Source of the DNA: Heptranchias perlo
Taxonomy: Eukaryota
Assembly: GCF_035084215.1 (NCBI RefSeq)
Contig: NC_090360.1
Coordinates: forward strand, 5,580,001-5,644,000
Direction of reading: 5' to 3'
DNA length: 64,000 nt
The translations under genes were made by a program, and so were the position numbers. The notes beneath the pieces are model-generated. The model was not told the origin of the DNA and ran no database searches. It worked only from the letters and a program-made list of their open reading frames with translations. Shown piece after piece: positions 18,390 through 60,214 of the stretch (positions are counted from its first letter, which is position 1; every line of letters begins with the position of its first letter).

Positions 18390-19142
18390 CGTTATTCAAC
18401 ATCGACTCCAATGCGCCAGTGTAGCCTTCGGGCGCCTGAGGAACAGAGTGTTTGAAGACTGAGACCTCTACTCCAGCACCAAGCTCATTGTCTACAGAGC
18501 AGCCGTGGTCCCCGCCCTCCTGTACGCATCAGAAACATGGACAATGTACAGCAGACACCTCAAATCCCCGGAGGGATATCAGCAACGTTGCCTCTGCAAA
18601 ATCCTGCAAATCCACTGGCAGGATAGGCGTACCAACGTGAGCGTTCTCTCCCAGGCTAACATCCCCAGTTTCGAGGCACTGGTCACGCTCAACCAGCTGC
18701 GATGGGCGGGCCACATTGTCCTCATGCCCGACACAAGATTCCCTAAACAAGTGATCTACTCCGAGCTCCGCAATGGCAGGCGATCACTAGGAGGGCAGAG
18801 GAAACGCTACAAGGACGCTTTCAAAGCCTCCCTAAAAAAATGCAACATCCCCACCGACACGTGGGAATCGCTTACCCTAGAACGCCCAAACTGGAGAAGA
18901 AGCATCCGCAAAGGCGCCAATCACCTCGTTCGTCACCGAGTGGAACACGTGGAGGCCAAGCGTAAGCAGCGGAAAGAGCGCGCAGAATCCAGAGCGTCTC
19001 ACCCACCCGCCTTATTAAACACCACCTGCCCCACCTGCGGCAGAGTCTGCGGCTCCAGGATTCAGCCACCGCAGAACCCACCCTCCCGGAGTGGAAGCAA
19101 GTCATCCTCGACCCTGAGGGACTGCCAAAAGAACGAAGAAAG
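18390..19142 (+). mobile_element. RTE-clade LINE 3' fragment
   Basis: ORF 18505-19242: LLYASETW, QLRWAGHIV, RPNWR, CPTCGRVC; GAA-rich tail. Confidence 0.88.
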
Positions 19143-21884
19143 AAATACTATACCCTACTGTCTACATATGTATCCCGTATTAAGAAACTCACTCAGAATG
19201 CACTTACTGTTAGTTAAGGCTTTAAGCAAGGACTCCATCTAGTGGCCCCTGCCAAGAGTAGGCAAAGCCCAGTGTGGAGTCGCTAAATTTAGTCTCTAGG
19301 ATTTCAAGATGGGTTTTCAGCTCAGAATTCACTCTTCTGCAAAAGAGCCAGAGCTTTAAAAAAGTTATAGATCTTTTTTCCCAGGGCTGTTATTCCATTT
19401 AACAAAATACTAAACAAATGAACGTTTTCACTATAAACTGATTTAATTAGTACGAATGCCCTCGTTATACTAGGATTTTCATGCTGAAAGTATGGCAGTA
19501 ATTATGAATTTCAAGGGAAAATCCTCGAGTAAGACCATCTCAAATAGACTGTATTAGTCACAACCACAGCTGATGTAATATCTCAAACTTCTGCATAACT
19601 AAACAATGCGAAACCAGTCTACTTACCAGTGCAAAACTGCCATCGGACGATTAAGGAAAGGCTGAAGAAACTTGGGGCTGCTCAACCTTGAAAGGAAATG
19701 ACTTCATAGACACATACAAGGTAGCAAACTGTGTAGGAAAGGCAAATGTGTTCATTATCTCATACTGTACCTGATTAGTGGGACAAAGGGGCAATGGTTC
19801 AAACAAAAAAGGCAAATTCAGGATTGATGAAGTTCTACACAGTGAACCAGCGTATGGATAGGACTCCGATAGGGTAGTGGAGGCAAACACCCTGAAATTA
19901 TGCAAAAGCTCGCTGCTCGAATGGGGAGTCCGCAGTTTCTTTCTGGATGAGCCAAATGGTCTTCCTCGTCCTGATTTATCGCAAACACCCTCTGGCTGGT
20001 AGTCAGCCACTAAATAGATTGAAGTATGCACGTCCAGGGAGAAAATGGGCATAGGGCCAGGCTGCACACACAAGGTCCCTTAGCTTCCTCCAAAACGTGT
20101 GTGGAATTGTGCTTCCACCAGGAAACACAAACACGTACCTGGGCATTGACGGTGGAGAAAACCACAGCGCAACAAGCTCCCATCAGTAATAACCCTGCCA
20201 ATACAAATAAGGTAGCATTCGATGCGCCTCATTCTCACCAGCAGCCTTAACCAGAACACAAATTCCACTACATTGAATCATCAACTGCACAGCTTTAGAA
20301 ATAAAATGGATTCCACAGATATCAAGGATTTAAAATCTTGGAATCCACAGCAAAGGTTTCACTGCCTTAGTACCATAAGTATTGGTAATTCATCGATGTA
20401 CCAGCATAACTCCCCAACCTAGTGTCAAACGTGAGCACATTTTTGTGCTGTAGACTTATCTCCAATATAGACGGATTAAGCAAATACTTCTGCTGCTGCA
20501 ACTAGTAGTAAAAGCCCATATTTTTAAAAAGACAATGGGCAGTACTGTAAGTTGTATATAGCTTCATCAGTTAGGAGATACATGGGTGCCATTTGACAGC
20601 AAAAATGTACAGTTGGCAGTGTGGGCCAGTACTGTACATTTATAAACATCGGCACCCTGCACAGTATGAGCCAAATCCACATTCAAGTCATGCAATATCA
20701 CTCGCTGTTCCAATACCTTCTCTTCCTTGCCCCCCTCCCACCAAAGACAAATTGGGCCACCATAGGCTGTTGCTAGTTGAGTATATTTTAATTAACTTGC
20801 CCAGCTTGATTTGTAACTGTGTGCGTGCATATTAGGTGGCATGTTAACTGGGTGCAGCTGCACATAATAACAAGAAGAACAACCAATGTCTTAAGTTTGA
20901 TTACTGCGGTTGTTCAGACCAGTGAGATGTGGAGAAATTGTACTGGGGTGTCAAGCACAGTCAAACAAGCTAAGTAGATGTAATTACCTACCCAGCTAAT
21001 CCCATTATAGGGCATTTCCAACATCATGTAATTCTCTGATGACCACGCTATGTGTGAAAGTGATGAACACGACACTGTTGATATGATGCTATGTGTGAAA
21101 GTGAACATTTAAGATTGATAACATTCACAGGAATCTAAACCAAATATTAGATTGGCTAAGGAATAGCAGATACAATTGAAGGCGGATTTATACTTACAAG
21201 TTAGGCACAGTCAAACGTGACACATGCTCTGAAAATTTTAAGGACAGCGGCCACCGATTCAGGAAGGATGGCCAGACTCAAAATGATCTGATATTTTTCT
21301 AAAATGTTGCTGACAGATGAATGAGGGAGATGCAGTTGATTTTACTGTTTTAAGCCAATCCAGTGCTATGCTTTACCCTTACTCCACGATACCTCAGCTT
21401 GCCACTCTGTATGTACACGCACAAAGCACAAGCTGGGCAACTTAAATTTACATCTCAACACATGCATGCTAAGCATGGATGCTTTCCCAAAACCAAACAA
21501 GGCTTCACTCCTGCAGTATGTGGGGAATGTTTAGATAGAAAACCACACAAGCATCTCAGTTTGAAAGCATTGGACCCTGATTCTGGCACCAAAGTATCCA
21601 TTATGCTTATAATCCATTATTGATTACAAATTACATTCAACATTGAACTTAATTATTTTTTTAAAAACAGGGAAGTGAAGCTGCATCCTAACAAGATAAA
21701 AATAACTGCAGCTGAAGGTCGGTTCTTTATTGTTTGTACCCGGTAACATTTTTTTATGCCATCCACTCCATCCCTTAGCAAGGATGGCATTACAACATTG
21801 CAGACATGCACACTTGCCAGTTATTTGACATCAGTGGCAGCAGCTTGTACCATTTATGAACATTTTACACTTCTACTTTATTAC

Positions 21885-28900: not shown

Positions 28901-30475
28901 CCAATGGGACCGACCAAGTTAGCAGCTAAACATTATAATCATGTTCGGGCTCACCCATGAGCAACACCACGGAAACTAACTGCTCACTGGTAAAAATTAA
29001 AACGTCAAACACTCACATTTCTGATTGAGATCTTTGAGGTTGCGGTTAATATTAACAGCTATCTCCTTCATCTCCAGGTATTTAAGGCTAGTCAGTTTGT
29101 TCATGTTCTCCAAGAGTTTGTAATCTTCACAGGTAGCTAAAACATATAAAGAGTTTGAGGTGCATCAATAACTCAGTGATGAATTCTTTTTGTAGTGTGT
29201 AGTTCAGCAATAAGTCTGTTAAAGACAGCAACAGGTAAAAGTTTACTCCTGCCTATCCAAGGGAGACACTAGCATTGTTCAGCTTCAAAGTGTACAGCAA
29301 CAATCAGTAAGACATCAGAAGTTGGTTTCAAATGTGATCCCTCAGCCTATTTGATCTCATTCCTTCTACTATCCCATGTGGTGATTGTTGCAAACATTCC
29401 TTTTTCCCTCATATACTTAATAATTTGAAATTGGAACAATTTGCTATTAGTCAGACACTCAAAACAAAAGTACTAAGACGGAATGCAAAGGTTTGTAGGA
29501 AGATAAAACCAGTTTTCCAAGGTTCACAGCAATGCTGGAATCAAGTGCTTCCGAAACTGGATAAATGGTTAGTGGCGTGACACCTGATCGCTTTCATTGC
29601 TCTGAAAAAAAGATGCAAAGAACCATCATACTGGCGCAAAAGACGTGTTGCTCGAGTTGTAGAGCACTGCTCAGCGGTTTCGCCGCTGGACAACCAGTAT
29701 CAAACTAACCTGTGAGTTCCCCTTGCAGGTAGACAGCCATTTTGGTAAACATGTCATTACAGAGTTCGTTGATGTCTGGTTCGGATGGTTCTGTGGCTTC
29801 CTCTGCTGTTTCCACGCCAACATTATCTATTATTGGAGTAAAATTGTAACATAGCAATTACTGGTCGATGGACGCAGTGGTTCTCCAAAAAAAAAAGGGG
29901 AGATGATCCACAGAGAGGGACCCAAAGACCCACTATACCAATTTTTTTGACCAAAGGCCAATCAAAATTTTAAAGAAGCATCCCCACTCCAAACAATTTA
30001 AATTTTATTTTCTAAGACAAGGCAATTTTTAAAACTGAAATATTCCCACTTGTAAAACTAATGTTTTGTGTTTATGATGTTTGGGTTTATTTCTGTGGAG
30101 TCCCATTGGGTGACTGAAGCGACAATTTCTCTTTCTGGGAGTGCCCATGGACCTGGAAACTTTATAAACTTCATATAGCGCTTTCAGTGAGCTGGGGGCT
30201 GAGACCCCGCAGGTGGGAGTCTCCTCACCGCCAACAGGCCGAGTCAGAAGGCCGCCGTGGGGACAGCAGGACCGCGGGCCTCGCCTGGCCTGGTCCGGCC
30301 CTCTCCTCCCCCGGCTCGGCCCTCTCCTCCACCCCCCCTTACCGGTCTTCTTCACTCCTCCGACCGCCGCCTGACTGCTCCCCTTTGGGGGAGCGCCCGG
30401 ACTTTCCTCCACTGCCGGGCCTGTGCTGCCATCACCGAGCGACCGTCCTTGCTCCGGTGCCGTTACCGCCGCCAT
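25909..30475 (-). CDS. BLOC1S2: Biogenesis of lysosome-related organelles complex 1 subunit 2 (5 coding exons)
   Basis: Exons 30475-30343, 29826-29710, 29136-29017, 26959-26855, 25940-25909 splice in frame to ...[120 protein letters not shown]. Confidence 0.97.
26855..26959 (-). CDS. BLOC1S2: BLOC1S2 exon 4
   Basis: 105 nt, [34 protein letters not shown]. Confidence 0.96.
27560..28657 (+). mobile_element. CR1 LINE internal fragment (ORF1 SGNH esterase + ORF2 AP endonuclease), frameshifted
   Basis: [17 protein letters not shown]; LNAWSI, ETWLQ, VYRPP, MGDFN. Confidence 0.88.
28823..28917. repeat. Perfect 21-bp tandem repeat, about 4.5 copies
   Basis: (ggaccgaccaatggcccaatg)n in BLOC1S2 intron 3. 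Confidence 0.95.
29017..29136 (-). CDS. BLOC1S2: BLOC1S2 exon 3
   Basis: 120 nt, [19 protein letters not shown]..., ttttag / gtgagt. Confidence 0.96.
29710..29826 (-). CDS. BLOC1S2: BLOC1S2 exon 2
   Basis: 117 nt, [10 protein letters not shown]...LQGELT, donor gttagt. Confidence 0.95.
30343..30475 (-). CDS. BLOC1S2: BLOC1S2 exon 1 ([44 protein letters not shown])
   Basis: aagATGG Kozak context in CpG island; donor G/gtaagg, phase 1. Confidence 0.8.
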
Positions 30476-30479
30476 CTTC

Positions 30480-30665
30480 GCCTCATCGGTCATGTGACCG
30501 CGGCGCCCCAGACAACCGCTTTTAAAGGAAAGGTGGCAACCAATCGGCGTTGCCGGAATAGTCCACGTGACACAATACGGAGCGACCCCCGCCCCTTCTT
30601 CGTCTGACCAATCAGCAGGCGCTGGTGCGACCCCCACGTGGGAGCTCCCCTGTAACACGTGCGCT
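30480..30665 (-). promoter_or_regulatory. BLOC1S2 CpG promoter with M-box/CLEAR-type E-boxes and CCAAT boxes
   Basis: GGTCATGTGACC 30488-30499; CACGTG at 30564, 30635, 30656; CCAAT at 30540 and 30608; GC box near 30587. Confidence 0.75.
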
Positions 30666-32864: not shown

Positions 32865-33247
32865 AAAGAACATGTACAAACGTTTTTATTTAATCACGCA
32901 GGAGGAGTTACAAATGGAAATATTTCACAGAGCTCATACAACAAAAACACATTTTCCCCTTACATCTGCCACACTGATCCACGATGTGCTCACCAGCAGT
33001 AAAACTAAATGGTGGTACATTATATTAGTTTAAAAACTTCACACAAGAACTTTGTCCCCTTTACAAAAAAATGTCACAGTCATCAAGTATTACTTGCATT
33101 TAAAAAGGAAAAATTACAAAGGAAACGTAAAAAGTCCACCAGATCCAATACTGCCCATAATGCAAAATAAAATCTGTGACAGGTTTCTTCACTTCTTAAA
33201 GGATTTCAAAGATGTCTAGTCCCTCTTGTTATAATAGTCACTGCCAC
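32865..33247 (-). other. Terminal non-coding 3'UTR exon of the hnRNP gene with polyadenylation signal
   Basis: Strong acceptor cccttctgttttccag at 33248-33249; U-rich UTR; AATAAA at 32890-32885; 3' end approximate. Confidence 0.75.
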
Positions 33248-33858
33248 CTGGAAAACAGAAGGGACAACAGCAAGGTTAAGCTTTTACCTCAGTTTTTAGG
33301 GCAGCACACACTAACCGTGTGAAGTACTGGGCTGGCCGAGACATGTTTACTCTTTTGTCAATATTGATTAGCAGAAAAAATTAGTTTGAAGAGCAAAACT
33401 ATGTTTTTGTTTGATTGGTAGCATCTTCAAGTCCTCCATGCTCTTGGGCCCAGCCTTCAGTTCTTAAGCCAACTGAATTTACAATACATAAACTATATTT
33501 CACACACTGCAGATGCTGTAAGAATATACAAGTCCATTAACATTACAGACATGAGTCACGCATCACTACTGAGCTATAGAAAGAAAAAAAGCAAGCATTA
33601 TTTAGCAATTGGTAGTACATTATCAAATTACACACTATTAAAAGAAAGCACAACTTGTAAGAACGGCTTTATCCATTGAAGAAACAGGAGGTCATGGCTA
33701 TATTACCACTTAACTTGAGCCTGTAAAGAAAATATGACTACATAATTTTATTTAAAAAAAGGAAAAACAATGTCTGCGTGAATGAAAGTGTATAATTAGA
33801 GTTTTTTTAAACTGTCTTTAATCTTTATGGTGAGACAGAAGGTTGGAAGAGACCATAC

Positions 33859-33944
33859 CACAGGGCATCTCGAATTCTGTCCACAATGTGCAGGCTTGTG
33901 CGAATCGTGTGGTCATGGTGACATGGCCTGCAATGAAGCTCCCA
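33859..33944 (-). other. 3'UTR cassette ('poison', NMD-inducing) exon of the hnRNP gene
   Basis: cctgccag acceptor, starts TGGGAGCTTCATTGCAGGCC, ends CCTGTG/gtatgg; resembles recalled HNRNPD exon 9 / HNRNPDL exon 8. Confidence 0.85.
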
Positions 33945-35553
33945 CTGGCAGGTACAAACATAACGGTACAAGTCAGAATTAGACTGGTAGAATTCTTATC
34001 AGGCTGTTGCTCTGATGTTCTTAAAACCCATTATGGTACATTACCTGAGATCTTTTACTCATTAAGTGTTCAAACAGGACTAGGTTATCCTTACACAATT
34101 TACTGCTGTAAATATTTATGTAAAATTCAAAAGAAAGAGTTAAATGGGAGTAAGAGTAAAAATGTTATACCCATATTTAATACTTACAATAATGCAGTAT
34201 ATTTGCAGCATAAAGATATAATTGATTTATGAATTTAGATTACTAAGCACAGAGATTAAAGAGCTAGTTCAATCCAGAGGAAAATAGTCAAGTTCACACA
34301 TACCAATTCAGTTCCGCGAAAGCACTGGGTGGCTTTTCATTAATTTTGCAATTTGGTAATCATTACCCATTACAGAAGTCCACAATTTAGCTTTTATTTT
34401 GCACACAAGTATCATTTATACCTACAAAATGGTCTTAATCAAGGGGAATTATGCTCCACGGACAGCGAACAATTCAACACGCATCAGGGTATTAAGTTAT
34501 CTTAGGTTACCAGGAGTGGCCATAAGTCATAAGCTGAATGGAATGAACTACGGTACGAGTCCTCTTCTCTCTCTTTCCCCCCCACCCTCAAATAATGAAA
34601 CTTACTCCTTGGGAAATGCAGTCAAGGGCAGACCTATTTAACCAATGTTTAGTACAATGCAATTATTTTAATACTACAAGTCCAACATTTCACAACTGAA
34701 ATGTGTCCATTTTATCTTGCATAAATTGAAATTAATCTTGAAGGGATAAAAAAAAACAGGCTTTAAACAGTCTGTATAACCATGCAATTCTTCTGCCATC
34801 TAAAATTTTAGACAGTGCAGATTTCACAATATGCAATGGCTTCTCAGATTTATTAGCTGTCTTATTAGATTAGGGATCAACTCTTCTACTTGGCTGGGGT
34901 CCGTTCGAAACATTCCTCCATTGCCCAAGTGAATTTAGAAACTTCACTTTTTCCGTCAGAATGGTCAGTGAAATTAGGAGATTCAGATAGCAGTTTAACA
35001 GGATTCTGTCATATGCAAAAAAAAAGTGCATATCACAATTCAACATTAATACAAAAAGTTAGATTTAGGTTTTAGCAAACCTTACTGCACGACAAAAAGA
35101 AATTGTTGCCATAACGTATGAAAACCTACAATAAAGACCTTCCTAGTCATCCCACCCAACTGATCGAGGAGATCATTTTGCATGGCATCAAGGTAGCACA
35201 TATAAAACATGCTTTTAAAGACTACAGAACTAATTAAATTTAGTAAAAAAAAACACTTTAGAAGCTACCCTCCACCAATAGCTTAAAAATAGTATCCAAA
35301 ACAGATCCAATGATGCACCTACAGGTCAGTGGGACGGTGAAGGATTCAGATAAACTTGGTCAGGGGTTATTTTTAAAAAAATAAAATTTTAGGTATCTGC
35401 AAAAGAGCTAATGCAGGGGCAATTTTATTAACCATTTTGAAACCAAAAAACATTGATCTAGCTTTTTAATTACAAATGTGCACATTTTCCTCAAATACCT
35501 GTGAAACATAGGCTTTACCTTGTTCATGGAGAGCTTCGGAACAGCCAAGTCAT

Positions 35554-35630
35554 CTAATAAGGCCTATACTGAGTTTGGCCACTTCCTCCTCCTCCTCTCC
35601 TAGGAGCTTTACCATAGCTGCCTGGTTGAC
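35554..35630 (-). CDS. hnRNP D/AB-like exon 7 coding part ([25 protein letters not shown])
   Basis: ttactttcag acceptor; TAG 35556-35554; exon continues to donor AAG/gtaaag at 35519. Confidence 0.92.
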
Positions 35631-38600
35631 CTGAAAGTAAAATTAGTTGAAGAAAAGGATTTGTCAACTCTCAAGCTGTTGACTACCTTTTGAACTAAAC
35701 TTCTGTTCATCCAACACATTTGACCCTTTGTCAGAAGTGTCAGTTTGGCTCAGCTGGTAGCACTCTCACCTCTTCAGTCAGGAGGCAGTGGGTTCTAAGC
35801 CCCATCTCGGACTTGAACACAAAGTCTAGGTTGATGCTTACACAGATTTCTGCCGTGTCAGAGGTGCCAACTTTCAACTGAGATGCTAAACGGAGGTGAG
35901 GTCTGGTCTGCCTACTCTGATGGATATAGAAGATCCCATGGCACTATTCAGAGGAGCAGGGAGCTCTGGGCAACGTTCATCCCTCAACCAGCACCAAAAA
36001 TAGAATGGCCATTTATCGCATATGTACGACCTTGCTGTGTGCAAATTGGCTGTCATGTGTGCCTACATTTCAAAAAGTAATTAGAAGGCTGTGAAGTGCT
36101 TTGGGACATCCTGAGGATGTGAAATGTTATAATTGCAAATCCGGTCTTTGTAATCCTTCTGGTTAAGATGCATGAAGTCGCAACTTTATCTGGGGCAGTA
36201 AGATAATTTTTGAAAATACAGACCAACTTCCAGTTCATTATTCCATTAACCTTTAGACTAAATAGAGGAACCTGCTCCTTGAGATCACACAGATTTATGG
36301 ATCAAATCCTGCTTGCCAAACCCCTATTTAGATTAAGCCTGCATACATTCCATCAGCTGTGCTGATCGGCTTATGCGGGGGAGGAAGAATCCTGTGTTTT
36401 AAATGTTAAAAATATGCCTAAAAGTTTAGTTCAAATGCAGATTGTTTGCCCGTTTACAGCAGTGCTCAATGCCACTTTGAACAGTGCTGACAGCAGGCAT
36501 GTCCATTACATTTGAATTTAGCTTTTAGATATTCTTCCAACCAACGTTCTCTATGGTCTGTTATGTTGAACGCAATGCTGGCAGTTTGAGCAGCACTGCA
36601 GCTGTTGACCAGCTGTGTGAATCTCTGCTGCACTGCTCTGCCAGGACACGATACAAAACACCTTCCCATGATCCACTGCATTTAAATAAACACCCCTGAA
36701 AGTTAAACAGATGCCTAAAATTAAACTTTAACAGGGGTGCCTTATTTCAGCCCTGCTCAGCGACCAACTTTGGGTGAGTGATCAGATCACTAACTGGATT
36801 CCACTGTGGTACACATTTGGTGCAGTCCTGTTAAGACCTGCTATCTTGAAAGATCAGGCTCCCTTTTCTTAAAGGTTGGGAGGGGGGTTGAGGAAGAGGA
36901 TTATTAAGTAGAGATCAGTCTGGGAAATTCGGGCAAGCGTTTAAACTATTTTGTTGCGTGAAAGGGCTCTTTCACAAGGTAGGGTGAGTTGATTTTTGGA
37001 ATACTATAAACTTTCTGGGGCAAGTTAGATACTAGGAACAAAAGTTAAGAACGCATGGGAAGATCAAACTCATAGTTGAAGGGAGGACAATTTCTTTCTC
37101 CGGTCTCCCGAAGGCATCAACTCCTTGCTGGTTATGGGTTCCACGGGAACCAGTGTACCTCCGCTACCGCGGCCAAGTGATCATTCTTCACGCGTGAGCT
37201 GAGTCTCATTAGGCTATTTGAATGCACGTGGCATTGCAGCCAAGCCCGATCCTGTTCTCATCCGATGTCTACAGGCACTTGTCCAGAAGGGGCTGCTGGA
37301 TATCAAAGCAGGAGTGGAAACCCTGGCAATATCCCCTCCCTGACACAGCGGCGTTGAGACCAATTCCAGTAGGTGTCAGCTGTGGCTCAGTGGGTAGCAC
37401 TCTCGCCCGAGTCAGAAGGTTGTGGGTTCAAGTCCCACTCCAGGGACTTGAGCACATAATCCAGGCTGACAGTCCAGTGCAGTACCGAGGGAGCGCTGCA
37501 CTGTCGGAGATGCCGTCTTTCAGATGAGATGTTAAACCGAGGCCCATTCTGCTTGCTCAGGTAAAAGATCCCATGGCACTATTCGAAGAAGTGTAGGGGT
37601 GTTCTCCCCGGTGTCCTGGCCAATATTTATCCCTCAATCAACATCTCAAACAGATGATCTGGTCATTTATCTCATTGCTGTTTGTGGGACCTTGCTGTGC
37701 ACAAATTGGCTGCCGTGTTTCTTGCATTACAACGACTACACTTCAAAAAGTACTTCATTGGCTGTAAAGCGCTTTGGGACGTCCTGAGATCGTGAAAGGT
37801 GCTATAGAAATGCAAGTCTTTCTTTTATACCTACCACTGTCCAACCGGAGATGAACTAACACCACAGTCTGGCAATCCAACAGCCTTCCTAGTGTATATG
37901 GTTCAGTTACTGACAACCAGGTGAGCCATCAGGAGGTCCAGGCAACAAAGTTTTGGGTGAAACTACATTCTTTTTAGGAGGCATTTCCACCATCTTCCCT
38001 TTTCAGGTTTCTCTGAGCCATGTACTTACTGTGGGTAGGTATGTGACCCACCATCAGAGGCTGAAGTCTGCCAATGTCACTCAAACCACTTGCCAGAGAG
38101 ACTAAATAAGTCGCTCTCCAATTCGCCTCTCCCTTGTTGACAGATACCTCTCCACTACAGATTAGCTGAGAGCAGCAACTCAGCAGATTGACAGACCAAG
38201 GAACTACTTACTGGATTTTTCAAGTAAACCAATGAGAAGTGACTCCTGGTCTATGAAACTTACTGTTATAATCACCATATCCCTGTCCATAACCATAATA
38301 GCCATAGTTGTATGCTGGGTAGTCATAACCACTATATCCACCATAACTCTGGTTATAGCCATAGTTATAATTTCCATAACTTGGGTTCCAATAGTTACTG
38401 TTGTAGCTTTGGCTCCAGGTCTGGTTTTGTCCTAGAAAGGGCAAATGAAAAAAAAGTTAGCAATTGAATCCAGATAGCAAAATTGGTTAATAGCTATAGC
38501 TTCTGACAAGTTAAATTTTTCCTTTAATATGAAAAACAAAATGGAAGAAACCAGGTCAAAGTAGATCTCCATGGACCTGCAGGGAGACCGGTACAAATTT

Positions 38601-41600
38601 TCATGTAGCGCAGGACACATTCCTTCCACCTCATACTCTCAACTATAGGTGTGGGTTAGATGGATGACTAGGGAAGAACTACCAAGGCAAAGAGCAGAGG
38701 GGGGAGGAAAGAAAGCACCAGCTTGGCTGAGTCAGCAGTATTCTCATCTCAGTCAGAAGACCGAGGATGTGAGCCATACTCCAGAACTTCAGTAAATAGT
38801 CTAAGCTGAAATTCCAGTGCAGTACTGTGGTAGTGCTACATTGTCAGAGGTCTCATCTTTCAGATGAAAACCTTGTCTACCTGTTCAGGGTGAAAGATCC
38901 TATAACATTATTGATGAGCAGGGAGTTTTCCCATGTCCTGGCCAACATTCCTCTCAATCACCCCCAAAAACAGATGAACTGTTCCATTCATCCAATAGTT
39001 GTGTGTGGGATCATCTTGTGAAGAAAACCCTTGCCTGAATGAGTGACCACACTTCCCGTTAATTGCAGGCGAGAGAATTTGGGACTGCCTGAAGACATGA
39101 TAAAGTGCTATTTAAATGCAAGCACTTTCTTTCTCTAAGCACCCCCATCAGCAGCCCTCTTTGCCCAAGTGGCTGTAGTTCATGGGACAGAGTACGAGCA
39201 GGCATTCTGACTTAGGAGCAGGACGGCAGCCATGCCCACTGCCCCAGCCGAGATCAGTAGGTTCAGCAGAGAGCAAGAATCAAAACTGAGGGCAATTTGT
39301 GCTCCATTTCATCTGTCAAGCCAGAGACTAATGGGCAAACTAGGCCGCTATAACGTGGAAAATATTAGATTGACACAGTTGAGACAGAGAGATGGGGCCT
39401 GAAGAATGAGGCTAGAGATAAGAACAAGGCATCTTACGTAACTTTTACTACACCAGCTAGGAGTGCTTAATAGTGATATGAGGTGTCCCAAATGGGCAAG
39501 TGGTCCACTTTGGGCCACTTAACATTGCTCACCTTATTGAGCACAAAAATGTTACACAAACTTCATGTACATACAGCATTATAAAACAAACATGTGGGAG
39601 CAATTTCAAGATTGTAGTCTTGTGTTCAGATGACTTTTATAAAAACTTCTCAAGCTTTGATCTTGTTGCTTTGTTTTACCCCTTCTGGTTATTCACTTCC
39701 AGTCATCTCCAGGGATTCACCGATTTCTTTACATTGCTCAATAGGTATTCTGACAAAGTTGAATGGGTGTAGCTGCGGTTATTTATACAAACCTCATGTT
39801 ATAACTACTTTAATTCAAGGACTGTTGATAGCTGTGGTTATGAATTCTATAAATCGCATCTTATAAATGCTATAATTCAAGGATTGTACCTAAATAATAG
39901 GAGCTCTAAGTGATGGCCACTTAGAGATGTAGCGGGTAGCATGAAATAGGAATTTAAAAAGTTTCCCTTTGTGAAGATCGCAATGCTTCACACATTATAC
40001 CTCCTCTACCTCTTCCTCTTCCAGTGAATCCACCTCGGCCTCCCCACTGCTGCTGCTGGTATACTTCCTTAGGCTGGGCCAATTTGATTTCAACCTTTGG
40101 GAAGAAACACACAATGAAATTAATGAACATTTTCTAGAAACTGCAGAAATATGAAAATACATTATATGATCCCATTCAAAGTTCTAGACAATAGTTGGAT
40201 TTCACTTATTCCTAACTTGAGGAATCTATGAGATGTCTGACAAGGCAGTACAGGGTATAAGCACTACAAGCATCTGTTACACAATTGCCAAAAGTGCCAC
40301 ACCTTGCTTGTTCCAACATCGTGGAACTTCTTCTCCATAATTGTCTTCACTGGATTATCCTCCTTGAATGTGATGAAGCAGAACCCTCTTCTCTTGTTGG
40401 TCTTGGTGTCCATAGGGAGTTCAATAGATTCGATCTGTAAAGTAAAACAAACTAATTACTTTGCTCAAATAAAGGTGGGCACTAATTTTTCTAAATTCTT
40501 TGGGAAAAGACTTTGCTGCCCCTTTTAACATAATCCCATTTTGGAGTTGCAGAACTTCCATTGGCAAAGTAGCTCCAAAAACTCTAACCCCCTTAGAAAG
40601 ACCACGACCCATTCAAACTGTACCCAACTGCACTCCTGAACCAACTATCAGGAAATGTGACTCCAAACAACATGCCCTCTGATTTAATTTCCGGTGGAAA
40701 AGAATCTAACCTGTGCTCATGACAGCACTGAAAACACTTGAGGGCCTCCAACCAAACTCAGCATTCAAAAGTAGCTTCAGCATGGACAAATATGGGCATA
40801 TTAGACATTTTAAAAGTTAAGTTAATCCACGCAGCTCCCAGTAAAAAACTCGGTAGCAACAGAGCCCTGGGAAGAGTGCGGGCAGTGATCAGTTGGGGAA
40901 TGGTGGATGCCGTGAAACTCGGGAAAAGAAACTATATTAAAAAACCAAATACATTGAAAATCTTCAGGTACCCCTATTAATTCAAGTTTCCAGACTAGGA
41001 GACCCATTTTTGAATGTTGAATAAATTTACTACTCAAAATCGATCTACATACATATACACATATATATTATGTATCCCACTAATCTTCGATTAAGCCATG
41101 TTCTCACCTCTCCAAAAGTTCCAAAATATTCTCTCACTTTTTCTTCAGGACAGTCAGGGTCCAAACCACCAACAAAGATCTTCTTGATTTGCTCCTTGCC
41201 CTTCATAGCCTGAGCTTTCTTGGGATCAATAACTCTCCCATCAAGTTTGTGTTCTTTATTCAATACCTGAATGTTAAACAAAAGACTTATTTACACTGTT
41301 TTAGTTGAATGGATCATATACTTCAGATAGCAAGCTAATATTTTATTTGAACTAGTGAAAATTAAAATACTAACCTATGAGTGAAGTACTTTTAATTCTA
41401 ACAGCCTTGGGCAGATTAGTAGGTTTTTTTTTAAAAGTACAAAGTACTATAGAAAAAAAAAAGCTAGGAAGCATCAGCCCTATCTCGCCACCATCTCACC
41501 CACAAACACATCACTGCCCTGACAGCAACCTTGTTGAAGACATCTAACTATTGATAACACTATATTCCTCTTCATATTATTGAAGAACTGCAATGTTAAC

Positions 41601-47600: not shown

Positions 47601-50600
47601 TTCAACCTTATGCAGTGTCACATTTGAGTCATTTCAAGAAGTAGTTAGGATTCCTCATTTAACCTGGATAGAGTCAGGTTAAAAATTGGCAGTGAATACC
47701 AAATCCTACCTTGTCTACACTTTCAGGATCCTTGAAGAGGATAAACCCAAATCCTCGCGAACGCCCAGTCACAGGATCCATTTTGATTACGCAGTCTACA
47801 ATGTCTCCATATTTAGAAAAGTAGTCCCTTAAATCTTTCTTGCTTGTTTCCCAGCTGAGTCCACCAACAAACATCTTCCTGCACAGTGATAATATAAAAA
47901 AGGAAGTGCAAATCAGTTTTAAAAACAGCGGCAGTACAAATATAGTAACTTAGGTCTGGTGGTGGAACAGCACTGCCGATGCTGGTCCCTTCCTCCACTG
48001 CCACTTCAGTGCAATCTCAACCCTTGGCTAGATGAGGTGAACACCCACTTTGTACTCCCTCTGTTCTGGGTCTCGTTAATATTACATTACCTACAATTCA
48101 AGTACGGGCTTTCTCTTTCAAACTCCACATGGCTATTCATTCTGCAGGGAATAAAACCAGGGACACTGATCCTTCAAGACCTTTGCATCAGGTGCTTTCC
48201 CCATAGTCTAAGGTCTTAGGAATTGCATCTTCAGACACCCAGATACTGACCAGGTCATGCATACAAGTGAAAACTGCTCCAAGCAGGTCTGAAAAGATAG
48301 AGAATTGAGGAGCTGGTATGGTGGAAACTTTGTACGTGAAGTTGAACCACATTCACAGAATGCGGACAATACTTACAGTTGGTAACTTAACACTGTTCCT
48401 TATTCATTCAATCTCACAAAAATAGAACATACCAAAGTGGTGCATAGATCTGGAGATGAAATTCTGAGAACCTAGGTGCACATGAAATACTGCAAAGTCA
48501 TTATACTATGCTGCCAATTCAAGATAATGCACGTGAAGGCATGCACATTCTGGGTACGTGCTGTGGATAGAATTTGCAAAATCCTCCCAGCATTATCCAT
48601 GTGGTTGCTACCGCCCAAATAGTCTTTCACGTGGTCTGGTCCTTCTGGACCAGCCAAATTGTAAACGGATATACGTTCTCAATACCCAGTTCATTAATCT
48701 ATACTCAGTGATGGGTTTACCTCAGGTTCCAATCCTGCTACTAACAAATGCCTTGTATTGGCTAGTATACATAGTTTATCTACATGACTAAAGCTCAGTG
48801 CCAACAAGGCACAGAACATTTTCACAGTGGCTGAAAAAACCTCAGTGCAAATTATTGAAACAAATTAAAATCAATTTTTAAATCAGAAAGATATCTTTTA
48901 ACTGCGGGTTTGGCGTGTCAAACAAGAGCTGCTGGGCCTACTACCAAAAGCATGAAGTTTGCTAATTCTATCTTTACAAAATAGTGCCAATAATGTAATA
49001 ATCTTAAACTCAATCTTGAAGTTCAAATGGGTCCAACATTAAACTGGTTCAGAACGAGACTCAAAATCTTGAAAAACTTGCTGTCTATCAGCTAACTTAA
49101 TTGCAAAACCCAAGTTGGCAAGCCTGCACTCAGTGAGCTGCACCAGGGAAACTAATGCTCAAGAAGGGCATTAGTGGACCTGAAAGAAAACCAGGCCATT
49201 AACCAGTGGGTTGGCTGTTATATAAAGGACTGCAGGGGTTCATGAAGTTTTCCAAGGCAACATTTACTTAGCCTGGACAGGTCCCTGAAAAAGCAAGCTC
49301 TAGTATCATATAAATTTTCAGAATCCAGTTACCAGAACTGAGCATACACGTTTCCAACCGTATAGTGCCGGTTGCAAACTTCCACGTATTGGTGCGTTGA
49401 AAGATCCACCTACCCAGTCTAGCATTGCAAACACTGCATTACTGGCTTGCACTAGACATGCTGACAATTCAGCCCACCCACATCCAGAACAAAAACGACA
49501 ACCAAACAAGTGGCTCTGGCAGCACTTTGCCCTTGAGGCCACAATGTCTTGTCGTGAGGTGATATTTTCCTTCACAGAGAAATGTACATTGCTGTTTAGT
49601 TTATGGGAGCTTGAGGTACAGCCCAGTACTGTTACATAAATACTGTAACAGTGTCAGTACATCAAACGAGAACAATCATTTGGCTCAGGGATTAGAAAAG
49701 AGCAGAGTAGGGATCTTCCCTACTGCCCTTCCAAACTCCAGCCTACATTAAATTCCAACTTTTCCAGAGAGCCCTATCCCACACAAAAACCTGCTCACCC
49801 ATCACCCCTGTCCTTGTCAACCTCCACTGGCTCTATGCCCTGCAGCATATCAACTTCAAAACCCACCCTCAACTTCCTCCGTGGTCTTACCACTTCCTAT
49901 CTTTGTAACCTTCTCCAGCCCTGAGGCGCTGTCCACACCATCCACTCTTCCAACACTGGACGACTGTGTGTCCTCTCCTCCCTCCCCCAGTCTATCACCG
50001 GTGGCAGAGTTTCAGCAATCTTTCCCCCACCCTGAGAACGTCCTCCCTAAACCCCTTCAACCTTGTTATACCTCTCCCCACCTTCAGCTGTGAATTGCCA
50101 TGGCACTTTTGTTACGTTGTAAGTTGTTGCTTTCAGTCCCAAGTACCATAAATATAGGGTGGTCAAATTATCAACTTACATTTAAGGTGGTTACTAGACA
50201 AGAACAAATTTATACCTTGTTTATGGTAATGAGAACTATTTTTTAAAAAAGTGATTTGGATCCTTCATACAATTATAAACAATTAGATCATTCACAAATA
50301 CACCACTGCTACAGCATTTATACTGCAGACTCCAATTGAGTTTGCAGTCGTGCTACTGCCAGCTGTGCGCTCCTCCCCACAAGCAGTTTTAACATTACTT
50401 GGCTTCAATTTGGTTCGTCTCACACAATTTCTGTTTCATTATGCTAACCATCCGGTGATATCTCAGGGTGAGATTGCCAATTAGGGGTAGTTGTGTGCTG
50501 TGTGCCCATGCCTACCAAGAACTGAAATGAAACTGACCAAACATATTTCGTATAGGGTCTTTACAGCCAGCAGACAGAAAAGACTTCTATCCATCAGTTT

Positions 50601-53600: not shown

Positions 53601-56056
53601 GCTGAACAAACAAAAATCAACCCAGGACATAACCTTCCTGGAACCCACCAGTTTATACAAGGGTTAATTAGTTTCAATAACTCAGAAGTTCTAAACATGG
53701 AAATTATTTTCCCATTCTAGCATCCAATTAATCACGCTAGCCCATAGTGATATCAAAATTTGCCTTGATGCAATGTCAGTTCTTTGTCTAAACATCCACT
53801 AGCATAGTATTTTTTTTAAAAACAAAAAAGGGACACACACACACCCACCCACCGCCCCCCCCAATCATAAACCAGTCAGGAGTAAGGATGGAATCTAATC
53901 AATGAGGTCAAGACAATAAACCACACAAGCCATATGTGCAGTTTAGGACATTATCCAAACTCAATTAAAGGCTTTTTCCACACATGCCCAAAGAGTCCAC
54001 AACAATTTTTGCAACATGGCTTCAGAAAGGTACACTATGTCCTACACAACACACCTACACCCAATATCTGAAAAGGATTAGTCAGCATTTTTCTACACCA
54101 GTTCTACAATGCAAGTTAGTATAACAGAACTTCAGCTAACTCAAATGTCTAGAACTGTGAACCTCAGCATTTGCTGCACAGAAGTTAACAGTTTTAAGTT
54201 AGTCAAAACTATGCTGTCCATGGTAAATAAACAAACTCAAACAAATACAATGCACTGCAGTAAGCCTGCAAAAATTTGAAAAATATGGCTCTCGATAAAA
54301 TGGTAATCTTTGCAACAAACTGAAGCCACTCAAAGTTGCAGAGATTACATCTGTTCTTAACATAACCATCACCCAACATGGTTCCACACAGATAAAACCC
54401 ACAAAATCTGATAATTTTCTTAAGAGGCTATGTTTTTTTTTTAAAAGTGCAAACCATTTCAATGTCTCATTATTTAAAGTGAAGGAAACTGCTTTTTCAG
54501 AAGCTTTAGAGCCCAGCTCAGGGCCCAGCTGCAAATTAATCACATCGCTTGCCTCTCAGACCAACGCAGTCTGTACTTCTGCAAGGTAACAGAGCATCAG
54601 GTCAGTCCTACATTTACAGTCTAACCTGCAAAGGAGAATTCACCCAAGATGACACCAACTTCATATAACAGGAGATTTAGTAGAATGGTACCAGGGATGA
54701 GGGACTTCAGTTACATGGAGAGACTAGTGAAGCTGGATTGTTCTCCTCAGCAGAAAAGGTTAAGGGGAGATTTAATAGGTGTCCAAAATTATGAGGGGTT
54801 TTGAAAAAAAAGTGTTTCCATTGGCAGGAGGGTCAGTAACCAAAGGACACAGATTTAAGATAATTGGCAAAAGAACCAGAGGGGAGAGATTTTTTTATTA
54901 ACGCAGCAAGTGGTCATGATCTGGAATACACTGCCTGAAAGGGTGGAGGCAGATTCAATGGTAATTTTCAGGAGAATTGGATATATATTCGAAAAGGAAA
55001 AATTTGCAGGGTTCTGGGGAAAGAGATGGGGGAGTGGGACTAATTGTATAGCTCTTTCAAAAAGTCAGCAAAGGCACCACGGTCTCAATGACCTCCTCTG
55101 TGCTGCAAGATTCTATAACAAACCCACATTGATTATGAACAGAAAAATATACAATCTGTCTGCCAGCTTTTGAAAAGAATTGCGATAAAATAGTTTCAGC
55201 TCTGACGATGCTGGCAGGCCGTTTGGGTTTCTCTATTTTTAACTGCTGATTTCCCGTGTGTATACTAATATCCCACACATTGCTCACAATGAATCAGAGG
55301 ATACACGACATTGTGACACCTTAAGAGTGTAAAAGGAAACAACAAACACTTACAGGAAGGGCAGAACATCTGGAAGACTATTAATGCCCATCTTCGGTCG
55401 CCTATAACATGTGCGCTGCTGCAATAGGAAGTAAAACCCAGCTGAGCGCGCATGTTATATTCAGGGCGAGCTTTTATACCTCGGTCCAGGCTCGATTTGG
55501 AGGGGGACAATTGAAGCGTTTGAACCTGGACGGTAATGCGGATTCCCGGGCAAAGCTAATCCGAGGAGCCACTGCAGGAGCAGGGCCCGCTGCTGGGGAC
55601 CTGAGCTCTACAAAGGGGTCACGCTGGGGTCAACTCGACTCCAGGCCCAGCCCCTGCTGCAGGCCTCAGCGCTCGATTTCTTTCATGAGGCCTCGGGTCC
55701 CAATCTGAGGCGCCGGGGTGGGGTCCCAACCCTCGGCTCGGCTCGCTCGCTCTCCTTCCTGAACCGGACCCCGGCTCCCGCACTCACCCCTCGTCCTCCT
55801 CGTTCTTGCTGGCGTTAATCTTCGAGCCTTCCACGTCCTTCTGCTGCTGCTGCTGCTGCTGCTCCAGGCTCCCGTCTCCCACCCGCCCCGAGGCCTCGCC
55901 GCTCGCGCCCGTCGCCGGCTCGGCTTTCGACTCCTGCGAGTCCCCGAAGGGGGCCTCGTTGTCTCCCTGCGCCCCGAAGCTGTAATAAGCGGCGTCGAAG
56001 CCGTCGGTGGCCGCCCCCGCGCTGCCGTTTTCCGTGAATTGAGCCGCGTCCGCCAT
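35554..56056 (-). CDS. Heterogeneous nuclear ribonucleoprotein D/DL/AB-family protein (2 RRMs + RGG + Gly/Tyr-rich tail), 7 coding exons
   Basis: Exons 56056-55788, 47878-47710, 41266-41108, 40434-40303, 40094-40001, 38431-38264, 35630-35554 splice in frame; motifs [41 protein letters not shown]-terminal YRPY*. Confidence 0.96.
35740..36150 (+). mobile_element. Deu-domain SINE copy
   Basis: Colinear similarity to 37374-37825. Confidence 0.78.
37374..37825 (+). mobile_element. tRNA-derived Deu-domain SINE (SacSINE1/AmnSINE-like), near full length
   Basis: A box tggctcagtggg, B box ggttcaagtcc, central domain and L2-like tail; related copies at about 925, 10097, 14455, 16392, 35740, 38720, 43480, 46960 (+) and 26370, 60215, 62150, 62720 (-). 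Confidence 0.85.
38264..38431 (-). CDS. hnRNP D/AB-like exon 6 (Gly/Tyr/Asn-rich low-complexity domain)
   Basis: 168 nt, phase 1-1, [22 protein letters not shown]...[10 protein letters not shown]; gtaagt donor. Confidence 0.92.
40001..40094 (-). CDS. hnRNP D/AB-like exon 5 (Q-rich/RGG)
   Basis: 94 nt, [31 protein letters not shown]. Confidence 0.93.
40303..40434 (-). CDS. hnRNP D/AB-like exon 4 (RRM2)
   Basis: 132 nt, [44 protein letters not shown]. Confidence 0.95.
41108..41266 (-). CDS. hnRNP D/AB-like exon 3 (RRM1 end/RRM2 start)
   Basis: 159 nt, [18 protein letters not shown]...[25 protein letters not shown]. Confidence 0.96.
42570..43330 (+). mobile_element. Decayed CR1-group LINE RT fragment
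   Basis: WTSHI...AGQRL...[12 protein letters not shown]. Confidence 0.75.
45292..46000 (+). mobile_element. Two adjacent CR1 3' fragments
   Basis: [13 protein letters not shown]; second copy similar to 1990-2340. Confidence 0.85.
46960..47390 (+). mobile_element. Deu-domain SINE copy
   Basis: Colinear similarity to 37374-37825. Confidence 0.8.
47710..47878 (-). CDS. hnRNP D/AB-like exon 2 (RRM1)
   Basis: 169 nt, [24 protein letters not shown]...[18 protein letters not shown]. Confidence 0.96.
54660..55120 (+). mobile_element. CR1 LINE 3' fragment
   Basis: Typical CR1 3' sequence; related copy at about 57220-57520. Confidence 0.8.
55788..56056 (-). CDS. hnRNP D/AB-like exon 1 ([11 protein letters not shown]...[15 protein letters not shown])
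   Basis: aagATGG start in CpG island; donor GG/gtgagt; Q7 tract. Confidence 0.9.
55841..55861 (-). repeat. Coding (CAG)7 repeat
   Basis: ctg x7 on + strand, encodes Q7 in hnRNP exon 1. Confidence 0.95.
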
Positions 56057-57739: not shown

Positions 57740-59040
57740 AACAACAACAGCTTGCATTTATATTGCACCTTTAACCTAGTAAAAACATCCCAAGGCGTTT
57801 CACAGAAGTGTTATTGCACAAAATTTGACACCGTACCAAAGGAGGAGACATCAGGACAGGTGACCAAAAGCTTGGTCAGAGTAGAGTTTTAAGGAGCATC
57901 TTCAAGAAGGAGGAGAGAGAGGTAGAGAGGCGGAGACGTTTACGGAGGAAATTCCAGAGCTTAGGGCCTAGGCAGCTGAAGGCACGGCCGCCAATGGTGG
58001 GGCGAAGGAAATTGGGGATGCACAAGAGGCCAGAATTGGAGGAATGCAGAGTTCTCAGAGGGTTGTAGGGCTGGAGGAAGTTACGGAGATAGAAAGGGAT
58101 GAGGCCATGGAGGGATTTGAACACAAGGATGAGAATTTTAAATTTGAGGTGTTGCTGGACCGGGAGCCAGTGTAGGTCGGTGAAGATTGAACGGGACTGA
58201 GTGCGAGTTAGGATATGGGCAGCAGAGTTTTGGATGATCGCAAGTTTACAGAGGGTGGAAGATTGGAGACCGGTCAGGAGAGCATTGGAATAGTCGAGTC
58301 TGGAGGTAACAAAGGCACAGATGAGGGTTCCAGCAGTAGATGAGCTGAGGCAGGGGTGGAGACAGAGACGGGCGATGTTACAGAGGTGGAAGTAGGTAGT
58401 CTGGCCGATGGAGAGGATATGAGGTCGGAAGCTCAGCTCAGGGTCAAATAGGACGCTGAGGTCGCAAACAGTCTGGTTCAGCCTCAGACAGTGGCCAGGG
58501 AGGGAGATGGAGTCGGTGGCTAGGGAACAAAGCTTGTGGTGGGGGCCGAAGATAATGGCTTCGGTCTTCCCAATATTTAATTGGAGGAAATTTCTGTTCA
58601 TCCAGTACTGGATGTCGGACAAACAGCTTGATAAGCCAGAGGCAGTGGAGAGATCAAGAGAGGTGGGTAGGACTGGGTGTCGTCGGGGTACATGTAGAAT
58701 CTGACGTGTTTTCGGATGATGTCGCCAACGGCAGCATGTAGATGAGAAATAGGAAGGGGCCAAGATCCTTGGGGGACTCCAGAGGTAATGGTGCGGGAGC
58801 AGGAAGAGAAGCCATTGCAGGTGATTCTCTGGCTACGACCTGATAGATAAGAATTGAACCAGGCGAGCGCAGTCCCACCCAGCTGAACAACAGAGGAGAG
58901 GCGTTGGAGAAGGATGGTGTGGTCAACCATGTCAAAGGCTGCAGACAGGTCGAGAAGGATGAGGAGGGATGGTGCACCACAGTCACAGTCACATAGGATG
59001 TTTGTAACTTTGATAAGAGCCGTTTCAGTGTTGCGGCACA
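57740..59040 (-). mobile_element. L2 LINE 3' part (reverse transcriptase, frameshifted)
   Basis: LLDLSAAFD, SGVPQGS, LQLNIGKTE, SRLDYSNALL, LHWLPV; (ttg)n tail. Confidence 0.92.
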
Positions 59041-60214
59041 TTAAGAACGAAAGTTGGCATTGCCTAATTGCTACTTCTTGATTTGCTTCAACTTCTCTTT
59101 TCAAACTTGGCATTGTCCTGCACTATGGTCCTTTGCCCTTCAGCACAGTGTCACATATTTTTAAAAATCCTGCTCTCCTCTGTAAACCTGCTTCATCCCG
59201 TATGTAATACCTAATTCCAGCCACCCAGTGACACTGTAGAAACAGAGCAGACATTGTAACTGCAAATTGTCATCTAGCAAAACACAAGAATATAAAAAGG
59301 ACAATAAAAAGCCATTTAGCTCATCGAAGCTTATCCCTTCAATACCCTGACTCTCCCATCACACCATCTAGCTCCATTTTGAACATCGCTAATGTTTTTG
59401 CCTCTTCTACCACATCTACCAAACATTTCTCATTCTTTGAAATAAAGTAGTTATTTTTAACAACAGAATGACGATACAAACCAGATTCACCTGCTTTTGT
59501 TATGCAAAATCCATGTCATTGTTAGAGGGGGGTATCTGTGAAATGAGCTGTAAACTATTTAAAAGACAAACAGGAGATTGTGAGATGGCTGAGACGATCT
59601 TTATAATAGACAATGGAAAGAAGCATTAAAGAAGTTAAAGAAACAATTAGATTTGTTAAAGAAATTTGTTAAACACAGAATGTGAGAGTAACTAAGGCAC
59701 TGGGAGGCAACCCTTGGGAGACACTCAATAGATCTTGCTGTTCTGCCATATGTCACTGTTGTTCATTAATTCAAATGTCTATCTTCTGGTCCTTATCTTC
59801 TGGCTTACCTTAAAGTAACATTCTGGGTTTACCTTCTCACAATACCATTCAAAATTTTATATACATCTATTGTTTCTGGACTATAGAGCTTGAGGTTCTC
59901 CAATTGTTCCTCATACTTTTCTACAGGTGGGGTTAGTTTTGTCCTCCGGTGCCTATCTGTTATTTTTGTGCTTTTGTGATCAGAATTGAACTCAAAGTGT
60001 GGTCTGAACAATGTTTTGTAAAGCTGTAGCACTGGGGCGACCAAATTATAGCCCACAGATCATTTTCAGCCCTTTGAGCCCTGGCAACTTGATTCTTGTT
60101 ATGCATTGAGTTCTTTTTTGCCAGATCTTACAAATCAGAACACTGAGACCTGTTAGTGTCAGATACTTGAGGTATCTGCAGATTAATGGAAACATGGATG
60201 AGAACGAAATTAGT

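Follow-up and report, generated by a model that had tools for sequence, protein, structure and literature searches.

A candidate 3'UTR poison exon in a D-family hnRNP gene of the shark Heptranchias perlo

Inclusion of exon 8 of human HNRNPDL and of exon 9 of human HNRNPD is controlled by both proteins, and the resulting messages are degraded by NMD (PMC5824352, which also cites Banihashemi 2006 on exon 9 of HNRNPD, or AUF1). In human cells, inclusion is sensitive to UPF1 and puromycin and is driven by D and DL; the auto- and cross-regulation named in an earlier note on this DNA is shown for human in that paper. The question raised here is whether an 86-nt block in the 3'UTR of a D-family gene of the shark Heptranchias perlo is an exon of the same kind, and, if so, which member of the family carries it and how old such a switch may be. 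All coordinates refer to the window, that is, the whole stretch of 64,000 nt that was analyzed (contig NC_090360.1, positions 5,580,001 to 5,644,000).

The host gene has seven coding exons on the minus strand, all with AG/GT ends. Its product has 355 residues and comprises a CBFNT domain, a pair of RRMs and a Tyr/Gly tail. Both RRMs are retained with D-type RNP motifs, and over 271 compared columns the protein is identical to Heptranchias perlo 'hnRNP D-like' (P0145). The coding part of exon 1 (55788..56056, with the ATG at 56056) specifies the CBFNT domain (Pfam PF08143, E 1.2e-05). Exon 2 (47710..47878) encodes RRM1, exon 3 (41108..41266) the end of RRM1, the linker and the start of RRM2, and exon 4 (40303..40434) RRM2. 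Exon 5 (40001..40094) has two donors 9 nt apart (40010-40001, minus strand), a pairing that would explain why annotated isoforms in relatives differ by three residues. Exon 6 (38264..38431) is Tyr/Gly-rich and, going by position, is taken as the counterpart of HNRNPD exon 7. Annotated isoforms without it occur in relatives (P0002, P0003 and P0008), and the two hnRNP D isoforms described as acting on splicing both contain its counterpart (PMC5824352). Exon 7 (35519..35630) is the last coding exon and contains the stop codon TAG (35556-35554). An intron of 2271 nt in the 3'UTR (33248..35518) separates it from the terminal exon, exon 9 (32871..33247), which has an AATAAA at 32890-32885 and an approximate 3' end.

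The candidate 3'UTR cassette (poison) exon, exon 8, occupies 33859..33944 on the minus strand. It is 86 nt long and has AG/GT ends, with the acceptor cctgccag/TGGGAG and the donor CCTGTG/gtatgg at its borders. From the stop codon, 35 nt lead to the donor of exon 7 at 35519 (AAG/gtaaag), and the terminal acceptor lies at 33247. A junction farther than 50-55 nt behind the stop codon marks a message as an NMD target. The junction formed by skipping, 35 nt from the stop, falls short of this limit, and the last junction formed by inclusion, at +121 nt (35+86), lies beyond 55 nt. The geometry claimed beforehand, with its 35-nt gap between stop and donor, its 86-nt exon and its junction at +121 nt, was thereby confirmed on the minus-strand letters.

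The splice signals of the block are weak. The acceptor region (33945..33985) has two branch-point-like words, CTAAT (A at -35) and CTGAC (A at -29), and a moderate pyrimidine tract; with 13 pyrimidines in 20 positions, the acceptor narrowly fails a splice-site filter that two other AG..GT pairs in the same 3'UTR intron pass. The cassette donor matches the U1 consensus at five of nine positions, and six of the seven constitutive donors reach seven. By themselves, these signals are no more than chance; weak sites suit a regulated exon and prove nothing. As a separate observation, a 61-nt candidate exon (34105-34045, minus strand) has a good pyrimidine tract, a tandem acceptor (cag/cag) and a strong donor (CAG/gtaatg). 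Its 3' end is 100 nt upstream from the acceptor of the cassette, so that part of it falls within the conserved block described below; it may be a further cassette or provide a decoy donor. The overlap of records 11 and 12 of run X13 might suggest that splicing branches near 34045, a reading that was rejected because the overlap of about 25 letters is too short for an assembly branch.

Base composition and conservation set the block apart. Its GC content of 53.5%, against an intron mean of 34.5%, is the peak of the 2271-nt intron and is reached by none of the 2014 86-nt windows without overlap to the block (these windows overlap one another). In run X13, which comes from another species, a single contig (record 11) covers 33802..34071 with no substitution and one gap in 270 nt. 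The neighboring contigs of the same run differ by five substitutions in 264 nt (terminal exon) and five in 233 nt (next intron), so that 0/270 stands against 10/497 for neighboring UTR and intron (Fisher p = 0.013, in one species). The conserved block includes the exon, the branch-point region and both flanks, extends 127 nt upstream of the cassette, and is about three times the length of the exon. It is not invariant everywhere, since run X22, from another organism that has several variants in common with X13, lacks 3 nt at 34018 and carries an insertion at 34052, both in the upstream part of the block; the same run has at least 21 substitutions in 242 nt of downstream intron. Both the GC content and the conservation of the block are beyond chance.

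Likeness to the human exons was sought through published primers. The exon-8 part of the human HNRNPDL 7/8/9 junction primer, CGCTGTCCTGTG, matches the end of the block, AGATGCCCTGTG, at 9 of 12 positions (p = 4e-4), or at 8 of 11 without the consensus last G (p = 1.2e-3); the place of the junction in the primer was inferred from the end common to the 7/9 and 7/8/9 primers. A 21-nt primer that lies inside human exon 8 aligned with the block at chance level, 118 of 2000 shuffles being as good. The 5' start of the block may resemble the starts of human HNRNPD exon 9 and HNRNPDL exon 8, a likeness that serves as a lead. This start motif was not found in the full texts or supplements searched, and a search of metagenome contigs with the exon motif gave no match; the host protein met seven loci in those contigs at 35-48% identity, none of them a close family member. 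The length of about 105 nt that the earlier note gives for the human exons agrees with the PCR products in Table S1 of PMC5824352, which give 105 nt for DL (313-208) and 107 nt for D (464-357). The passages of that paper on the two regions call them similarly conserved, and in these passages there is no alignment and no mention of HNRNPAB.

Splice joints were read from the assembled contigs of four of the 24 listed runs, three of which (X1, X5 and X13) are RNA-like; contig depths, and the stretches of intron without coverage in X5 and X13, were left out as evidence. Direct splicing from 35519 to 33247, which the earlier note had proposed as safe from NMD, was seen in all three RNA-like runs as a joint that skips 2271 nt (with other letters in X13), as was the joint between exons 6 and 7. 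The inclusion junctions it had named, 35519-33944 and 33859-33247, were found in none of the three (0/3, assembled contigs). This is not a refutation, since an NMD target should be scarce and scarce variants are lost from assembled contigs. Contigs of X1 and X13 pass unspliced through both boundaries of the cassette exon, and one X1 contig spans the whole unspliced intron (33227-35546). As contigs also lie in intron 6 in X1 and X5 (records 8 and 17), the unspliced X1 contig may represent pre-mRNA or DNA.

We consider it probable that the 86-nt block is a poison exon of the AS-NMD type and a homologue of HNRNPDL exon 8 and HNRNPD exon 9. The homology, already put forward in the earlier note, is supported at the sequence level by position, the 9/12 match at the 3' end, conservation and the family of the host gene; the chance-level result with the internal primer counts against it. 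It is also conceivable, if rather unlikely, that the block is homologous and functional but acts mainly as a detained 3'UTR intron or through nearby sites such as the donor at 34045, the 86-nt exon being minor or unused. The X1 contig across the whole intron agrees with detention, the conserved upstream 127 nt include the strong donor-like CAG/GTAATG at 34045, and PMC5000506 describes the mouse Hnrpdl and Hnrnpd events as introns detained on either side of NMD exons. Against this, the intron 6 contigs of X1 and X5 indicate that unspliced sequence occurs in another intron as well; detention and exon inclusion coexist in mouse; and the 86-nt boundaries coincide with the GC peak as well as with the match at the 3' end.

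Two further readings have much less in their favor. The block might be some other conserved element, an enhancer or a structured RNA, whose likeness to the human exons is due to chance. The internal exon-8 primer, no better than shuffles, and the tentative nature of the 5' match are in keeping with this; an Rfam search of the block returned no match, its predicted folding is no better than that of shuffles (z = -0.73), and it sits where a close paralogue has a known exon, with which it also agrees at the 3' end, all of which makes such a coincidence very improbable. Finally, the block could be the remnant of an ancestral exon that has dropped out of splicing. The missing inclusion joint in the three RNA-like runs, the weak donor and a length 19-21 nt below that of the human exons point in this direction, but the AG and GT are intact, and no substitution has accumulated over 270 nt in another species while neighboring UTR and intron differ; we regard this as the least credible of the readings weighed here.

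A tree of 34 proteins gave four groups, D, AB, DL and a host clade, with no firm branching order among them. The D group takes in shark and chimaera D (support 100/98), the AB group takes in a separate shark gene, named A/Ba in some species (87/92), the bony-vertebrate DL group has support of 100/100, and so does the host clade, which consists of sharks and a skate. The host gene was therefore rejected as an HNRNPD orthologue, since sharks and chimaera own separate D genes inside the D clade, and as an HNRNPAB orthologue, since sharks have a separate gene in the AB group. AU tests rejected none of the unions of the host clade with DL (p 0.189), AB (0.315) or D (0.235). A Callorhinchus protein (P0010, UniRef100_V9KVZ5) that was in a first tree was omitted from the 34-protein tree; its RRMs are those of the host clade, its tail is almost that of shark AB, and this may reflect either a chimeric assembly of transcripts or a genuine mosaic. 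Another side observation concerns HNRNPD itself: in shark and skate isoforms from three species (P0303, P0337 and P0340), an alternative short C-terminus replaces the last coding exon.

Finer characters lean toward DL. A Gly in the RRM linker is present in 7/7 host-clade and 6/6 DL rows and is absent from 10/10 AB rows, 3/3 cartilaginous D rows and lamprey; bony D has another residue at the site. The spacing of the tail motifs, with a two-residue spacer, is common to the host clade and DL, and lamprey shares the spacing too. On sequence grounds, two common indels favor a link between the host clade and DL. When 366 listed family proteins were sorted by diagnostic residues, 45 were of host type, 51 of DL type and 26 unclassified; among the matches listed, the 44 named proteins of host type all come from cartilaginous fishes, and none of the 49 named proteins of DL type does. 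The matches sorted were the best 120 of 145, of 918 and of 6433, so that a DL gene next to D in sharks could have escaped the sorting.

Location adds a further character. In five cartilaginous fishes (Mustelus, Heptranchias, Leucoraja, Rhincodon and Hemiscyllium), the host gene and D lie on different sequences, of 20-37 Mb and 168-202 Mb, respectively, and in four of the five AB lies on a third. D and DL are on one sequence in coelacanth, gar and paddlefish, and supplement rows of PMC11276968 place human D and DL about 70 kb apart. Within the window, D is not adjacent to the host gene. From about 14081 to 1 (minus strand) there is instead a divergent SLC25A24-like (SCaMC) mitochondrial carrier gene, whose best match is a Mustelus protein (54-87% identity per exon). 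The accession of that protein adjoins that of the Mustelus member of the host clade, on the same sequence, so that the carrier/hnRNP neighborhood is kept among sharks. Between the two genes, in a GC-rich island at about 30200-30650, an ORF at 30493-30224 (minus strand; ATG at 30493, donor-like GTGAG near 30230) looks like the opening coding exon of a small gene and has no Pfam or Atlas match. Broken pieces of LINE-type retroelements lie at 57876-59122 (minus), 18463-19242 (plus) and 1940-2245 (plus); the first is confirmed by Pfam RVT_1, and the other two were judged by eye from their translations.

The host may be a D-family member not yet described. That it is a fourth family paralogue, placed on the DL side, seems to us about an even proposition, and that it is HNRNPDL itself, on another chromosome, falls a little short of even. 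PMC2453138 assigns the family to the human 4/5/8/10 paralogon, where chromosome 4 carries two members and chromosome 5 a single one; the possible losses in human and mouse raised there leave room for a lost family member. We put forward only tentatively the fuller proposal that the genome duplications of early vertebrates gave rise to the host as a fourth paralogue, kept only in cartilaginous fishes and carrying the same poison exon as HNRNPD and HNRNPDL.

By analogy with the human genes, we infer that the shark exon is included, that inclusion targets the message to NMD, and that D-family protein drives it. By default, exon 7 would be spliced to exon 9, and, under the 50-55-nt rule, a message with its junction 35 nt behind the stop would be stable. 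At high levels, D-family protein is predicted to bind the pre-mRNA and to favor the weak sites of the cassette, inclusion being promoted by the gene's own protein and probably by shark hnRNP D. With the additional junction at +121 nt, the normal stop codon would then count as premature and the message would undergo decay, its encoded protein being unchanged. The expected outcome is negative feedback on the total amount of D-family protein.

An exon common to the host gene and human HNRNPD must predate the split between sharks and bony fishes, since cartilaginous fishes carry a separate HNRNPD. It follows that the exon, if homologous, is older than the split of the host gene from D. The suggestion that the switch predates the paralogue duplications thus holds for the host/D split, on condition of homology, and is overstated as a general claim, which would have to extend to AB and lamprey. 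Human HNRNPAB is not known to have such an exon. The earlier note also makes the host gene a further node in the feedback network; this role is hypothetical, and the gene may just be the HNRNPDL of the shark. Doubt falls on the idea that the shorter shark exon helps define a minimal element: the conserved block here is at least 270 nt, and in human the exon placed alone in a 3'UTR was inert, regulation being transferred together with both flanking introns (PMC5824352).

The type of switch is already known in human and mouse, and the possibly new part may be the host gene. Our literature search found no paper that treats the shark host gene or dates the D/DL exon, although element lists that we did not see may hold it; a term search of PMC3595034 and a search of the supplement of PMC9675575 gave no match. 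If the exon is homologous, one non-coding switch has been kept through duplication, against the pattern of the SR genes. A third, diverged copy would show which exon and intron positions all copies keep and so point to the binding sites, none of which are mapped in the available sections of PMC5824352. Heat leads to inclusion of HNRNPDL exon 8 in mouse and human cells (PMC7726792), so the shark copy, from a cold-blooded animal, also offers a test of whether the temperature response predates warm blood. Should the host prove to be a fourth paralogue that carries the same poison exon, the exon, and probably the dosage circuit, would be older than the early vertebrate duplications and would have survived in three paralogues, and the cross-regulating network of sharks would be wider than that of mammals.

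Among known systems, HNRNPDL exon 8 is the closest in arrangement. There, as here, the stop lies in exon 7, the cassette is exon 8 and the terminal exon is exon 9 (PMC7726792). The human exon lies inside uc.144, its skip junction is less than 50 nt from the stop, and the conserved block is larger than the exon, likewise as in the shark; the HNRNPDL protein shares with the shark protein the linker Gly and the two-residue spacer in the Tyr/Gly tail. The two differ in exon length (105 nt versus 86 nt in the shark) and in the distance from stop to skip junction, 22 nt in human DL (PMC5824352) versus 35 nt. They also differ in location, as bony-vertebrate DL is on the chromosome of D, whereas the shark host is on another, beside the SLC25A24-like carrier gene. 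HNRNPD exon 9 is also a 3'UTR cassette after a stop-bearing exon in the same family, with 107 nt versus 86 nt, and the RRM2 and Gln-rich stretch of the shark host protein are D-like. More distantly, PTBP1/PTBP2 and hnRNP L/LL, paralogue pairs that cross-regulate by AS-NMD, and the SR genes with their poison exons are likewise genes for RNA-binding proteins with a conserved unproductive splice (PMC7764535). Among SR paralogues, unproductive splicing turns over, having in most SR genes originated independently or been replaced after duplication (PMC4379411); against that turnover, retention of the exon is mildly notable. Unlike most SR genes, the D family appears to have kept one exon across its paralogues.
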